From the NCBI GenBank assembly GCA_003566715.1, contig PXCF01000139.1, forward strand, positions 18,275 to 82,274: a stretch of DNA of 64,000 bases, read 5' to 3'. The notes under the pieces are model-generated. The model worked only from the letters and a program-made list of their open reading frames with translations. It made no database searches and had not been told where the DNA came from. The stretch comes from Cryomorphaceae bacterium. Its GTDB lineage: Bacteria; Bacteroidota; Bacteroidia; Flavobacteriales; Schleiferiaceae. The number at the start of each line of letters is the position of its first letter. The first letter of the stretch is position 1. The position numbers and the translations under genes are program-made. This document shows positions 2,558-9,129 of the stretch, piece after piece.

Positions 2558-3307
2558 TTATATTGAAAACAGCCAGGCTACACCAATAGCAACAATTACC
2601 GACACAATCTTCACCAAATTAAATCGGTGATCTTCGCTGGCCTCAAACAGAATGGTGGTAGAGATGTGCAGGAATATGCCCGCCACAAACGCTGTGGCGT
2701 ACATGTTGATTTGGTAGATGTCTGGTAAAAACTGTCCGGTAAACATACCCAGTGGCGCCATGATGGCAAACAACAGCAGCAAGCCGTAGGTGATGGGGAG
2801 GGATAGTTTGCGCTCTCTCAATAGCGAAAATAAAACCACGCCAACGGGGATGTGGTGAAGGGCAATGCCCCAGAAGAGTTTGTTACTGATTTCCGGAACG
2901 TGTAGTTGCGTGCCAATAGGGATACTCTCAATAAATGCGTGTAGGCATAAACTGAGCATGGCGGCAAGCGGTATGTTGTGACGTGGTCGTTTGAGTTCGC
3001 GATGGGCGTGACCATGTTCTACTCCGTGAGATATCATTTCCAAGATCACTTGAAACAAGAATCCCAGCATGACCAGAAGGCCGGGTAGGGGATTGTGCTG
3101 GTGACCGTGTGCGTGTGCGTGTGCGTGATCGTGCGGTTGATGCGCGAAAATTTCCGGCAATAGGTGCATCATGGCCAGTGCCAGTAAGTAGGCACCACTG
3201 AAGGCCAATAATATTTTTAGTCTCGACGGATTACCGTGTCTAAACCAATTGGCGATAATTGCGCCTACCATTACGGAGGCGATGAGAATGATGGTTTTAA
3301 AGATCAT
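2558..3307 (-). CDS. ZIP family divalent-metal transporter with a His-rich loop
   Basis: Multi-TM protein with an HQPHDHAHAHAHGHQH loop and the HNIPEG-like motif HHIPVG typical of ZupT/ZIP proteins. Confidence 0.75.
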   Translation of the reverse strand: MIFKTIILIASVMVGAIIANWFRHGNPSRLKILLAFSGAYLLALAMMHLLPEIFAHQPHDHAHAHAHGHQHNPLPGLLVMLGFLFQVILEMISHGVEHGHAHRELKRPRHNIPLAAMLSLCLHAFIESIPIGTQLHVPEISNKLFWGIALHHIPVGVVLFSLLRERKLSLPITYGLLLLFAIMAPLGMFTGQFLPDIYQINMYATAFVAGIFLHISTTILFEASEDHRFNLVKIVSVIVAIGVAWLFSI

Positions 3308-4035
3308 TTACGAGCAAGGGTAATGTAGCGCTTTGAGCTACTTATATTTAATGTGGAAAGTTGATAGTCGCCCCATTCACGTTCAATGGTAAATCCGGAA
3401 GATTTAAGCATCTCTCGGAATGTTTCCGGATAAATGAGTTTTACTTTTTCATGAAATGTATGAATATTGTCTTGGTCTTCCACGCGAATGGTTTTAATCA
3501 CGTACTCACCTTCAATTCGTCGTTGAATGTCAAACTGTACATTGTCGATGACTTTGGTTTCCGGGTTGGTGTTGATGTGGGAAAGAGTCTTGGGATTGAG
3601 GTAGTCAAAGAGAAAGCAGCCGTTGGGGGTCAATGCCTTGTGGATATTGTCGAATACCTGTTGATTTTCATTTTGGGTATTGAAATAGCCAAAACTGGTG
3701 AAGAGGTTAACCACAGCGTCGTATTTTTCTGAGCCTAGGTCATCGCGCATATCGCCTTGAACAAACGATAGTCCTTCACGAGCGAAGTGTTTATTAGCAA
3801 ATGCAATGTTTTCTGCCGAGAGGTCGAGGCCGGTAACATTGTAACCATTATCGGCTAGTTGAACTGCGTGCCGTCCTCTACCACAGGCGAGATCAAGTAT
3901 GTGGCTGTTGTGAGGGAGTGGATGTTTTTTTAACCATTGGTCTATAAACGATCCGGCCTCATTGAGGTCTCGATGTCGGTAGAGTAGGTGGTAATAAGGT
4001 GTGTTGAACCAAGTGGCAAACCATTCTTTATTCAT
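3304..4035 (-). CDS. Class I SAM-dependent methyltransferase
   Basis: Motif I is LDLACGRGRHAVQL. The ATG at 4035 (MNKEWFATWF) is preferred over the upstream TTG at 4053. The gene overlaps the ZIP gene start by 4 nt. Confidence 0.75.
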   Translation of the reverse strand: MNKEWFATWFNTPYYHLLYRHRDLNEAGSFIDQWLKKHPLPHNSHILDLACGRGRHAVQLADNGYNVTGLDLSAENIAFANKHFAREGLSFVQGDMRDDLGSEKYDAVVNLFTSFGYFNTQNENQQVFDNIHKALTPNGCFLFDYLNPKTLSHINTNPETKVIDNVQFDIQRRIEGEYVIKTIRVEDQDNIHTFHEKVKLIYPETFREMLKSSGFTIEREWGDYQLSTLNISSSKRYITLARK

Positions 4036-4084
4036 GCGGCAAAAATAACACAATAAAGAGTGATTGACGCGGTGAAATGCAACT

Positions 4085-5410: not shown

Positions 5411-5477
5411 ATTGGTTGTTGTAGAAGATAAAAAAAAGCATTCCTCACATCTTAAGAGGAATGCTTACATACTCAAT

Positions 5478-6827
5478 TTATCGGCGTCCACCGCCGCGTG
5501 AAGGTGCAGATCTTACGCCACCACCGCTGCTGCGTGAAGGTGCAGAGCGCATGCTGCCACCACTGCTACGTGAAGGTGTGGAGCGGAAGCTTCCACCTCT
5601 TGAGGGAGTAGAGCGGCTTGGGCTAACACTTCTCGAAGGAGAAACACCTCTGCTTGGCATGCTGCGTGAAGGCGCAGTTCTGGCGGGGGGGCTGTAGTTG
5701 CTTCTCGATGGCGCACGTTGCATAGTCCCACGTGCAGGAGAAGTGTTTGAGCGTGCAGGTGCAGCGCGTCTAGAGCTGGGCGCAACGGAGCGTGAAGGTG
5801 TGGTTGCTCTTTGGTTTGCCGCACCGGGCGTTGTACGTGCCCCACCAGTACGTGCAGCAGGTTGCGTAGTTCTTGAAGGCGCGTGCATAAAATTGCTTCT
5901 TGAAGAAGCGGCACTGCGCTGCGATACGTTTGAACGGGCCAAGTCAGAATAGTTGGTGGCACGGTTAAACGAAGATCCTCTGGTAGCCGCTGTAGAGCGA
6001 TTGCTTGTCGTATTGCGCAAACTGCTAATTCCTTCGGTAGATGATCCTGCTGTACGTGCAGTTGAGCGCGAAGACTGAGCAACTCTGTTGCCTCCTGTAG
6101 CTGTAGAAGTACGCGTGTTGGCAGAAGCTCGGTCGCGAGCGATGGAAGTTGAACGAGGAGCGGTGTTTATCGTTCTGCGATTAACACCACCGGGCATGGT
6201 TCCGTATCCAGAACCTCCGGGACGCGTTCCCGCAAAGCTTGAGCGACGATTTGGGGCATAGTCGTATCCGGCACCCCACATGGCGCCATGACGGAAGCCG
6301 GCGTTATAGCTGTGCCAGCCCATACCCATACCCATACCCATGCCCCAAGGGCGCATCATGAATGGATCGTAGAAAAAGGGATCGTACATGGCCATCGGGT
6401 GCATCCCCCAAGGGTGCATCATGCCCCAAGGACGCATACCCATACCCATGCCCCATCCCATGCCCATGCCATAGCCCATGCCAAAGCTCCATCCGGGCTG
6501 CATGCCCCAACCCATTCCGGGGTGCATACCCATTCCCATTCCCATACCACCGTAGTAGTTATTTACGACCGCACCACCACCGGCAGCGCTACCACCTCTA
6601 GAGTCACGAGATTTTTCGCGAAAATCTGGGTCGTAGTAATCGTCGTAAATTTCACTTTGTTCGCCCGTATTATCGGCCTGCATAGAATTGGTCGCGCCAA
6701 CAGAAGGAGCCATGTAGCCGGGATTAAAATATATTCCATCGTCGTAGTGATTGGAAACAATGTCGCTTTTTGAACGACATCCAATCAAAACGATTCCTAA
6801 CATCATTATGGTCATCAATTTTTTCAT
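5478..6827 (-). CDS. Low-complexity lipoprotein with a Met/Gly/Trp/His-rich central block and a Ser/Arg/Thr/Pro/Ala-rich repeat tail. Function unknown.
   Basis: The ATG at 6827 gives [17 protein letters not shown], a lipobox with Cys. Downstream come [20 protein letters not shown]...[16 protein letters not shown], and the protein ends in tandem [12 protein letters not shown] units. Confidence 0.6.
5497..5690. repeat. Imperfect 30-36 nt tandem repeats inside the lipoprotein gene, encoding [16 protein letters not shown] 10-12-aa units
   Basis: CGTGAAGG(T/C)G recurs at 5497, 5533, 5569 and 5664, with a diverged copy near 5599. Confidence 0.8.
6313..6556. repeat. Microsatellite-like CATACC/CATGCC repeats encoding the (GM)n/W/H/P block
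   Basis: Runs such as catacccatacccatacccatgcc and cattcccattcccatacc, which translate on the minus strand to GMGMGMGW and similar. Confidence 0.85.
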
Positions 6828-6909: not shown

Positions 6910-8385
6910 ATGGCTAAAGTTCTTGCAAGCAAAGATAGTGATTACGCGCAATGGTACAATGATTTAGTAATAAAAGCTGATCTGGCCGAAAACAGTGCGG
7001 TTCGTGGCAGTATGGTTATCAAACCATACGGTTATGCCATTTGGGAAAAAATGCAGGCTGAGTTAGATAGAATGTTCAAGGAAACCGGACATGTCAACGC
7101 CTATTTTCCACTTTTTATTCCCAAATCATTTTTTAGTAAAGAAGCCAGTCACGTAGAGGGTTTCGCCAAAGAGTGCGCGGTTGTTACCCACTATCGACTT
7201 AAAAACGACCCCAACGGAAAAGGCGTAATCGTAGACCCGGACGCCAAGCTGGAAGAAGAATTGATTGTTCGTCCTACGTCGGAAACCGTTATTTGGGATA
7301 CCTATCGCAAGTGGATACAGTCTTACCGTGATTTACCGATAAAGATTAACCAATGGGCCAATGTGGTGCGTTGGGAAATGCGAACCCGTTTGTTTTTGCG
7401 TACCGCAGAGTTTCTTTGGCAAGAAGGTCATACGGCACATGCCAGCAAGCAAGAAGCGATAGAAGAGGCAGAAACCATGCTGAATGTTTACGCTACCTTT
7501 TTAGAAAACTTCATGGCCATTCCGGTTCTGAAAGGCATTAAAACCGAATCCGAGCGTTTTGCTGGTGCGGTTGAAACTTACTGTGTTGAAGCGTTGATGC
7601 AAGACGGAAAGGCGCTTCAAGCCGGTACCTCGCATTTTTTAGGACAAAATTTTGCCAAGGCGTTTGATGTAACGTTCGCCACAAAAGAAGGTACCAATGA
7701 GTTGGTATGGGCTACTTCATGGGGCGTTTCTACCCGCTTGATTGGCGCACTCATCATGACGCACAGTGACAACAACGGCTTGGTTTTGCCTCCAAAATTG
7801 GCGCCACACCAGGTGGTTATCGTACCCATTTATCGCAAAGATGAAGAGTTTGAAAAGGTCGATGCCGCTGCGAAAGACATTGTACAGAAACTTAGAGCGG
7901 CAGGTATTTCGGTGCATTACGACAACCGAGATACCCATAAACCCGGATGGAAATTCAATGAATATGAATTGAAAGGGGTCCCGGTACGTATCGCCATTGG
8001 TCCGCGAGATTTGGAAAAGCAACAGGTAGAACTGGCGCGGCGTGATACCTTGGAGAAGTCTTTTCAGCCAATGGAAGGATTAACCGGAGTTATTGCCGAC
8101 ATACTCGAGCAAATGCAAACCAGTCTTCTGGAGCGTGCCCGTAAGCGCACCCAAGACGGAACTTATGCTGTTGATACGTGGGAAGAATTTACCGAAGCCG
8201 TTAAAAATCGCGGAGGGTTTATCAAGGCCCACTGGGATGGCACGGCAGAAACCGAGCGCATCATCAAGGAAAAAACTAAGGCCACCATTCGCTGCATCGA
8301 ATTAGATGCACCGGAGGAAGAAGGGGTATGTGTATTCAGCGGCAAGCCTTCCAAAAGAAGAGTCGTGTTTGCAAAGGCCTATTAG
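6910..8385 (+). CDS. proS: Proline--tRNA ligase (archaeal/eukaryote-like class IIa type, about 491 aa)
   Basis: [27 protein letters not shown]..., class II motifs and the C-terminal ...[10 protein letters not shown] used the ATG at 6910, because the 6751 extension overlaps the divergent lipoprotein gene. Confidence 0.92.
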
Positions 8386-8457: not shown

Positions 8458-9129
8458 ATGTCTGAAAATATTTCCTGTAACATCGATCTATACCGTTTAC
8501 TGACCAAAAAATCAGCCGCTAAGGTGGAGGTTTTTAATCACATAAAAACGGTGATGAGCCTTTGGAAGGAGGTGTTGGAAGAATTGGCCGGTGAACTGTC
8601 AACCAATGTTTGTGGCGAAAATGAAGACATCGTTATCGAATATTTAGACGTGTCAACATTTGAGGCTAAGTTAAGAGCCTCTGGGGATATATTGTTTTCT
8701 TACGTGCATACCAATGTCTTTGCTTTGGACGAAAGTCACTATTTACACCAGCACTCATATTTAAAAAAAAATGAACTAGAGGGCTACTTTGGTACGTTGA
8801 ATCTCTATTATTTCTTGGGCGATTCCATTAAATACAACCGCTTGAACGACAACGGTATTTTGATCGCTCGGGTGATGGTCAATAAGTCAGGTCTGTTCTT
8901 TGTTGAAGGCATTCGCGCCTTCGGAGAATTCGATCGATTTGATCATAAACGCCCATTGACCCGTGAGCGAATGAAAGTTTTGGCTGAGATGGCGTTAAAA
9001 CACATGCTCGACATCGACTTGACCTTGCCGCCCCGACAGCATGCACAGTTGTTAAGTGTTGGCGACATCCAGTCTTTGAGGCAGGAGTTGAGGTTTAATA
9101 CAACGCAGAGATTGGGATTTAGGAAGTAG
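8458..9129 (+). CDS. Hypothetical cytoplasmic protein
   Basis: A 223-aa ORF with normal composition. I recognise no signal peptide and no motif. Confidence 0.5.
   Translation: MSENISCNIDLYRLLTKKSAAKVEVFNHIKTVMSLWKEVLEELAGELSTNVCGENEDIVIEYLDVSTFEAKLRASGDILFSYVHTNVFALDESHYLHQHSYLKKNELEGYFGTLNLYYFLGDSIKYNRLNDNGILIARVMVNKSGLFFVEGIRAFGEFDRFDHKRPLTRERMKVLAEMALKHMLDIDLTLPPRQHAQLLSVGDIQSLRQELRFNTTQRLGFRK

Follow-up and report, generated by a model that had tools for sequence, protein, structure and literature searches.

What role could an exported protein play that joins a methionine-dense block to a long tail devoid of lysine? This question is raised by a minus-strand open reading frame (ORF) at positions 5478-6827 of a 64,000-nucleotide (nt) stretch of contig PXCF01000139.1 (assembly GCA_003566715.1) from a Cryomorphaceae bacterium of the Schleiferiaceae lineage, hereafter the window, which gives a stop-free translation of 449 amino acids (aa). 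An initial annotation read the product as a lipoprotein whose Met-rich block might act as an envelope sponge for Cu(I)/Ag(I). Comparative analysis of the locus indicates instead that the protein is the Met-rich form of an unnamed, Bacteroidota-wide lipoprotein that is paired with a downstream FadL-type outer-membrane β-barrel.

The lipoprotein gene and its family

The translation opens with a lipobox-bearing signal peptide followed by several compositionally distinct segments (Table 1). The acidic Tyr/Asp head, which in the wider sense extends over residues 18-92, includes D63, Y64 and P67, which are invariant or nearly so in the family alignments. The ensuing block of 108 aa contains 24 M, 29 G, 8 W and 5 H, with 10 MxM motifs and one MxxM motif, and is the most Met-rich 100-aa segment of the genome (24%, as against a background of 2.5% over 2,231 ORFs of at least 120 aa); the second most Met-rich is the M domain of SRP54, at 16%. 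The tail of 249 aa comprises 42 R, 55 S, 29 T and 21 P, with only 3 D/E and 0 K. Tandem Repeats Finder (TRF) detects 6-, 12- and 18-nt arrays at 6319-6545, within the Met block, in addition to the 36-nt repeat at the end of the tail. AlphaFold2 (AF2) assigns the lipoprotein a mean predicted local distance difference test score (pLDDT) of 42 and zero secondary structure beyond the signal helix, and the protein is thus predicted to be almost entirely unstructured. When the lipoprotein and six diverse homologues were scanned against Pfam and NCBIfam, the only outcome was a sub-threshold match to a keratin-associated low-complexity model. Hence, the anatomy set out in the initial annotation (lipoprotein signal, acidic Tyr/Asp segment, Met block and cationic tail) is accurate on translation and composition, its tandem repeats are recovered at 5488-5597, and the structure model agrees with its expectation of disorder. 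The variation in repeat length, which it anticipated between strains, is seen between species, always in multiples of three.

As the initial annotation had itself pointed out, such a frame could be a spurious ORF in GC-rich simple-sequence DNA. The presence of long alternative ORFs in other frames and on the opposite strand, along with the want of a Pfam or NCBIfam family match, might be taken to favour this explanation; the alternative ORFs are, however, by-products of a repetitive, GC-rich coding sequence. By tblastn, 18 of 41 related genomes, among them 17 of the 24 further genomes from the same GTDB family, contain a homologue whose frame is open and free of stops, and the frame persists in relatives down to ~30% identity. 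These relatives are Cryomorphaceae/Schleiferiaceae metagenome-assembled genomes, Schleiferia thermophila, Thermaurantimonas aggregans and Owenweeksia. In codon alignments with two congeners the ratio of nonsynonymous to synonymous substitution rates (dN/dS) comes to 0.09-0.11 for the gene as a whole and to 0.03-0.07 for the Met block; these values are approximate, as dS is close to saturation. Every other part of the gene is less constrained than the block within the genus. Further, all 29 indels relative to these congeners are multiples of three. Together with the conserved synteny and the peptides detected for a counterpart in Flavobacterium johnsoniae (see below), the selection and the conserved frame have already refuted the spurious-ORF explanation, leaving it a negligible probability. 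The gene is real and strongly conserved.

The gene is flanked by a divergent proS gene 85 nt upstream and by the gene for the barrel 67 nt downstream. This proS/lipoprotein/barrel order is retained in all 12 family loci, where the barrel genes code for 430-500 aa, and proS adjoins in each of the 19 expanded Flavobacteriales loci whose flank reaches far enough; the conservation beside proS that was considered at the outset thus holds in both sets. The barrel is present in 49 of 61 Flavobacteriales genomes and, at E <= 1e-8, in 65 of 121 Bacteroidota genomes. In nearly every locus that was read, the same-strand gene directly upstream of the barrel encodes an exported low-complexity protein that is built alike: behind a signal peptide, in most cases one with a lipobox, come a [DE]D.[YF]Y motif, an acidic region, a block of aromatic residues spaced by Gly and a tail of Arg/Ser(/Gly/Asn). 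Automatic scoring of the 34 loci selected by a strict barrel pattern found an upstream low-complexity, basic-tailed exported protein in 32, with the other two failing only the rule for the C-terminus, while loci outside this set were read by eye. Hand inspection of one locus, L076, found no gene for a disordered protein upstream of the barrel, which there looks like a paralogue lacking the disordered partner. The window gene displays every one of the family features, namely the lipobox signal, a DDGIY motif starting 13 residues after the lipidated Cys, the Gly-spaced block, the Arg tail and the barrel and proS neighbours.

Recognition of the family by sequence similarity is limited. A whole-protein homologue search gave 18 matches, a small number because low complexity limits word seeding, and outside its own family tblastn detected no pairwise similarity to the lipoprotein. 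A profile of the N-terminal 110 residues retrieved only 54 representative clusters from 1.84 billion proteins, which suggests that the family diverges fast and is recognisable mainly by its architecture and synteny. The disordered lipoprotein family lies outside every Pfam and NCBIfam model and every solved structure; when the PDB was searched by sequence with the N-terminal profile, with a lipoprotein from the genus Flavobacterium (L064) and with the barrel of the latter, no relative emerged.

The counterpart that offers most information is in F. johnsoniae, where Fjoh_4939 is the proline-tRNA ligase (PMC12045153 supplement), Fjoh_4940 is a signal peptidase II (SPII) "periplasm-facing lipoprotein" with no function assigned, detected by mass spectrometry, and Fjoh_4941 is an OMPP1/FadL/TodX barrel (PMC12045153). 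The window locus shares with these genes the order of proS, SPII lipoprotein and barrel, and the six Flavobacterium-genus loci that were read have the same gene order; orthology to Fjoh_4940/4941 is thus well supported by synteny. The Flavobacterium homologues differ in having a Trp/Tyr/Gly/Asn block with 0-2% Met, as opposed to 20% in the window protein. Outer-membrane fractions of F. johnsoniae yielded ~46 peptides per replicate for Fjoh_4940 and ~19 for Fjoh_4941, and upon TamL depletion the two proteins rise 2.6-fold and 5.6-fold, respectively (PMC12045153). These peptides provide peptide-level evidence for the family, albeit from an organism other than the source of the window. That TamL study (PMC12045153) was the only literature mention of the pair found, and the supplements of the paper on the β-barrel assembly machinery (BAM) have no entry for Fjoh_4940 or Fjoh_4941.

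Table 1. Features of the locus and its immediate neighbours, in window coordinates
Feature	Position	Strand	Basis or remark
Coding sequence of the predicted disordered lipoprotein (P0001), 449 aa	5478..6827	-	Stop codon 5478-5480; translation, purifying selection, in-frame indels, open-frame homologues
Signal peptide with lipobox, Cys at 17	6777..6827	-	Sequence; C17 invariant in two alignments; sole helix of the AF2 model
N-terminal motif N26-x-Y-D-D-G-I-Y-x-x-P36	6720..6752	-	DDGIY core at +13, counted from the lipidated Cys
Acidic Tyr/Asp head, residues 37-92, including DYYDP and VVNNYYGG	6552..6719	-	~20% D+E
Met/Gly/Trp sticker block, residues 93-200	6228..6551	-	Partly encoded by 6-18-nt tandem arrays
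Lysine-free Arg/Ser/Thr/Pro polycationic tail, residues 201-449, ending GGGRR	5481..6227	-	Composition count
36-nt tandem repeat encoding tail units that end in (G/S)(V/M)	5488..5597	-	TRF: 2.7-2.8 copies, 79-80% matches
Terminator-like hairpin, 11-bp stem, 9-nt loop, U8	5428..5466	-	RNA fold -18.4 kcal/mol, z = -2.7
Partner FadL-fold outer-membrane β-barrel, 441 aa	4085..5410	-	AF2, Foldseek
proS (class II prolyl-tRNA synthetase), divergent neighbour	6913..8385	+	Pfam ProRS-C_1, tRNA-synt_2b, HGTP_anticodon
S-adenosylmethionine (SAM) methyltransferase	3304-4053	-	Pfam; context only
ZIP metal permease, His-rich	2558-3307	-	Pfam; context only

The barrel and the disposition of the pair

The AF2 model of the barrel, built from an alignment of 21 homologues, has a mean pLDDT of 85 and a predicted template modelling (pTM) score of 0.80. 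Its top Foldseek matches are BamG (9n2d_B, 9hiv_F), FadL (2r4l, 3pf1), TodX, TbuX and CymD, with template modelling (TM) scores of ~0.6 and ~11% identity for the best of them, and the model fits BamG as well as it does FadL. The matched BamG structures come from BAM complexes of F. johnsoniae, B. thetaiotaomicron and P. gingivalis. The most conserved stretch of the barrel is the N-terminal hatch region with an invariant N61-P62-A63. By sequence, the window barrel shows only weak similarity to PorV/PorQ and UPF0164 in the Pfam and NCBIfam scans, and the Pfam scan gives no match to PF03349 (Toluene_X); among its homologues L049 reaches 35.9 bits and L053 25 bits, against a cut-off of 29.7. E. 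coli FadL and Pseudomonas TodX (PF03349) share with the window barrel the 14-strand fold (TM ~0.6), the N-terminal hatch region and the NPA motif, but are only ~10% identical to it, the window barrel falls below Pfam detection, and the canonical FadL has no dedicated disordered lipoprotein partner.

Two specific identities for the barrel or the pair were considered and set aside. BamG itself is rejected for the barrel on score: the NCBIfam BamG model misses the window barrel and gives its relatives 28-39 bits against a cut-off of 250. Likewise, as regards the Bacteroidota lipopolysaccharide (LPS) translocon, no subunit described in the available part of the corresponding preprint (bioRxiv 10.64898/2026.10.03.756453) combines a 14-strand barrel of the FadL type with a lipoprotein that is disordered.

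The structural resemblance raises the alternative that the lipoprotein is an accessory of a true FadL transporter, with the barrel importing long-chain fatty acids or other hydrophobic compounds and the greasy, Met-bristled block and the Arg tail receiving this cargo at the periplasmic face. The FadL fold and the invariant NPA motif are compatible with this, as are the homologues that pass the Pfam Toluene_X threshold and the NCBI name "OmpP1/FadL family transporter" carried by the Flavobacterium barrel homologues. Additionally, the SRP54 M domain, second only to the block in Met content, is a known binder of hydrophobic peptides, and the F. johnsoniae counterpart rises when the supply of lipid to the outer membrane is disturbed. 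However, no genes for fatty-acid activation or degradation are linked to the locus, a 250-aa polycation is unnecessary for accepting a fatty acid, and the model matches BamG equally well. Indeed, the Bacteroidota FadL-fold barrels with known roles, BamG and PorV, are protein scaffolds rather than transporters (PMC12611786). On balance, a transporter accessory is unlikely.

A scaffold role has a direct precedent in the BamG-BamH pair (PMC12611786; PDB 9n2d, 9hiv), in which a FadL-fold 14-strand barrel holds the lipidated tail at the N-terminus of the lipoprotein BamH. The comparison has its limits, in that BamH is folded and surface-exposed, whereas the window lipoprotein is predicted to be disordered and has no export signal, and the window pair has no known association with BAM. 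Nevertheless, the N-terminal motif of the window lipoprotein would suit a similar arrangement. The family alignment shows N26, D30, G31, I32, Y33 and P36 without variation. A related [DE]D.[YF]Y motif recurs in ~46 homologues of many families, at a distance of +11 to +16 from the Cys, and such a motif stands ~12 residues after the Cys in most of the 51 homologues examined. This DDGIY-type motif is the one conserved sequence element, and its nearly fixed spacing from the lipid anchor, taken with the analogy to BamH held by BamG, fits a putative docking peptide.

The side of the membrane on which the lipoprotein resides bears on a further alternative. In Bacteroidota, lipoproteins of the cell surface have an acidic export signal directly behind the Cys, of the form C-X-K-(D/E)2-X or SDDDD/SDDFE (PMC5080379). 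The window lipoprotein instead continues from its lipobox as C-R-S-K-S-D, which is not a surface-export signal, and an acidic pair at +2 to +6 occurs in only one of 51 lipobox homologues; four homologues have an ordinary signal peptide without the Cys. In view of the missing signal, the lipoprotein most likely sits at the inner leaflet of the outer membrane, facing the periplasm. A surface-displayed adhesive, exposed by the barrel and binding extracellular DNA, capsule or LPS through its cationic tail, could invoke the anchoring of the surface lipoprotein BamH by BamG and the affinity that a strongly cationic, Lys-free tail would have for polyanions. However, 50 of the 51 lipobox homologues have no acidic export signal, some homologues do without a lipid anchor altogether, and Fjoh_4940 is classed as periplasm-facing (PMC12045153), all of which makes surface display very unlikely.

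The relative amounts of the two proteins might be set by an RNA element. The terminator-like hairpin, which a consensus terminator scan missed, sits between the lipoprotein stop and the barrel start. In 8 of 13 related loci a hairpin of differing stem sequence, followed by a U-run, stands at this position, while in the remaining loci the lipoprotein and barrel genes abut or overlap. It would appear from this arrangement that, in this lineage, more lipoprotein than barrel is produced, which agrees with the ~2.4:1 ratio of peptide counts in F. johnsoniae, crude as that comparison is.

The methionines of the block

In all families the block is a conserved unit of ~110 aa with ~35% sticky residues (Trp, Tyr, Phe and Met) spaced by Gly, and W+Y+F+M amount to 32-41% of it (39% in the window protein). 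The share of Met varies widely within this near-constant sum: 19-24% in this genus (20% in the window protein), 10-16% in Schleiferia, Thermaurantimonas and some other Schleiferiaceae, and 0-4% in other families, where a Tyr/Trp/Gly block occupies the place of the window block. Among the 31 members of the subfamily that is detectable by sequence, Met forms a continuum from 0 to 23% that is inversely correlated with W+Y+F (r = -0.89), a value that is partly circular, as the block was delimited by composition. Without any such delimitation, the correlation of Met with aromatics over the whole mature proteins of 59 homologues is r = -0.64. At the 24 alignment columns of the block Met residues, other genera of the family have Met in 32%, an aromatic residue in 29% and an aliphatic residue in 11% of the non-gap cells. 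As judged from these comparisons, most Tyr and Trp residues of the block have given way to Met in this genus. This trade-off points to Met as an interchangeable, Gly-spaced hydrophobic sticker rather than a conserved metal ligand.

The bearing of this on the Cu(I)/Ag(I) sponge put forward in the initial annotation, in which the Met/His/Trp block would chelate soft periplasmic metal through thioether and imidazole ligands, is considerable. Its composition (24 Met, 5 His, 8 Trp and 10 MxM in 108 aa) is what drew attention to metal binding, and thioether-rich peptides are, as a matter of established chemistry, known to bind Cu(I), from which an affinity of the block might be argued by analogy. 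The strong constraint on the block within the genus and the same-strand ZIP metal permease downstream could also be cited in its favour. Like the Mets-motif copper proteins (CusF, CopA/PcoA, CueO and Ctr1), the window protein is exported and has MxM motifs with some His and Trp. However, in those proteins the motifs lie in or on folded domains and the genes belong to copper regulons, whereas the window block is predicted to be disordered, its Met and His are unconserved among homologues and it has no linkage to copper genes. The range of 0-23% Met across homologues, traded against Trp/Tyr/Phe, implies that the ancestral function does not need Met. Further, Ser or Asn stands in for the His of the repeated M-H-P-W-G-M units in the congener L004, and the block of P0191, just as rich in Met, is devoid of His. 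The block shows no homology to a known copper-protein fold in the Pfam scan, no copper (cop/cus/cue) genes lie near the locus, HMA-domain genes being on contigs C1, C75 and C151, and the genome has no CusF. As for the ZIP neighbour, ZIP permeases carry divalent Zn, Fe or Mn rather than Cu(I), and the methyltransferase-ZIP order, which is kept in this genus, Schleiferia and Thermaurantimonas, is absent from Owenweeksia L024, L025 and L027. Taken together, a metal sponge is quite unlikely as the core role, and copper binding would be at most a lineage-specific side-property of the Met variant.

Two observations adjoin this point. The clades that keep the methyltransferase-ZIP order are the same as those with a Met-enriched block; as the clades are related to one another, this does not count as independent evidence. 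Separately, L054, L057, L058 and L059 have His runs inside an aromatic block, e.g., GHHHHHPYHYG and FYHHHHYAHYGYHGYHGHHGG, indicating that His enrichment recurs in lineages without any Met.

An alternative use for exposed thioethers is as a sacrificial sink. The Met-rich peptide MrpX works with MsrPQ, and by a comparable arrangement the block could scavenge periplasmic oxidants such as hypochlorite and be restored by an exported methionine sulfoxide reductase. The extreme Met density of an exported protein would suit this, as would a gene on contig C69 for an MsrB that has a signal peptide at its N-terminus. However, the genome, although 99.6% complete, has no MsrP homologue (PF00174), the msrB gene is unlinked to the lipoprotein locus, and the Met continuum argues for a replacement of aromatics rather than for the purpose of the protein. 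An oxidant sink is accordingly a highly improbable account of the family. The msrB gene in question (SelR; L102 1492-1977) is the only one of the genome, and its signal peptide, MKPSILAAIILSPLLAFCQQ, points to the repair of methionine sulfoxide outside the cytoplasm despite the absence of MsrP.

The graded replacement of Tyr/Trp by Met under strong purifying selection suggests that the probable selected property is the provision of Gly-spaced, polarisable hydrophobic side chains rather than of metal ligands. In this respect the block and tail resemble eukaryotic sticker-and-spacer proteins, such as the FUS-type combination of Tyr and RGG segments and the Met-rich domain of Pbp1/ataxin-2, which likewise have Gly/Ser-spaced aromatic or Met stickers and an Arg-rich, Lys-poor region. 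The resemblance to these phase-separating proteins is compositional only, and they are cytoplasmic or nuclear RNA-binding proteins, whereas the window protein is predicted to be exported and lipid-anchored in the bacterial periplasm. By extension, the family might form a periplasmic condensate or gel layer below the outer membrane, nucleated by the barrel, with the stickers recoded here from Tyr/Trp to Met and rendered switchable by Met oxidation or by Cu(I)/Ag(I). This is a speculative proposal that is rather unlikely to be correct; if true, it would present a natural experiment on the grammar by which disordered proteins of bacteria are built. The Met and aromatic variants among the homologues offer in any event a natural set for comparison.

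The tail and the proposed role of the pair

The tails of the homologues contain 10-24% Arg, except in L058 (6% Arg and 12% Lys), and are usually at 0-1% Lys, poor in acidic residues and of net charge +13 to +57, with RR, GR or PR at the end. They have grown by independent tandem repeats in different lineages, and tail length and charge appear to be kept through these independent expansions. L065 and L066, which are from Weeksellaceae-like genomes, end in GGFRGG repeats. Polyanion binding by the tail is plausible. The lack of Lys in the tail, including at the C-terminus, argues against a covalent link to peptidoglycan of the Braun-lipoprotein type: Braun lipoprotein has a C-terminal Lys for the linkage, whereas the window protein ends in Arg-Arg and most homologues are Arg-ended. 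As observations on individual tails, that of L052 (1860-3383) has more than 12 copies of SSGSSRSSSGIRS, while that of L068 (1597-2634) has four copies of the 22-aa unit RRSGNTRQYQYRPSTQYKSSQY.

The reading favoured here, which is tentative and has somewhat less than an even chance of being right as a whole, is that of a periplasm-facing lipoprotein that is docked to its barrel, with the sticky block and the tail acting in envelope or lipid homeostasis. The lipid-anchored protein would dock to its cognate barrel via the DDGIY motif, as suggested by the analogy to BamG-BamH, and the block and the polycationic tail would then make multivalent contacts beneath the outer membrane. Candidate partners include each other (through Arg-aromatic or Arg-Met contacts), peptidoglycan and anionic lipids. 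The pair would thereby serve outer-membrane or lipid homeostasis, a role that is proposed because the F. johnsoniae counterpart rises on TamL depletion.

Several considerations weigh against this reading. The contact between lipoprotein and barrel is drawn by analogy, and both the homeostatic role and the binding of peptidoglycan or lipid are deduced from composition and a single proteomic response. The periplasmic topology is argued from a sequence signal that is absent, and the orthology to Fjoh_4940/4941 from gene order rather than from a sequence comparison with F. johnsoniae. Additionally, with a terminator-like hairpin separating their genes, the two proteins need not be produced jointly or in a fixed ratio.

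If the proposal of a docked, periplasm-facing lipoprotein holds, the protein would be a rare instance of a functional bacterial protein that is almost wholly disordered and resides outside the cytoplasm. The pair is widespread and yet has no name, family model or assigned function, even though its counterpart is readily detected in outer-membrane fractions. Its study may bring to light a component still missing from the picture of outer-membrane or lipid homeostasis in a phylum to which major gut commensals as well as fish and oral pathogens belong.

The remaining neighbours of the pair provide context. The methyltransferase and ZIP permease genes overlap by 4 nt and lie downstream of the barrel on the same strand. 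On the other side, just after proS, a 223-aa protein (8458-9129, plus strand) has no Pfam or NCBIfam match. Similar proteins adjoin proS in many Flavobacteriales loci (e.g., L013, L015-L017, L058 and L059), and it would by this sequence pattern be another conserved unknown of the proS neighbourhood. Elsewhere in the same genome, contig C110 has several long Arg/Ala/Gly-rich ORFs, unlike the rest of the assembly (~45% GC), and may be a high-GC contamination of the bin.

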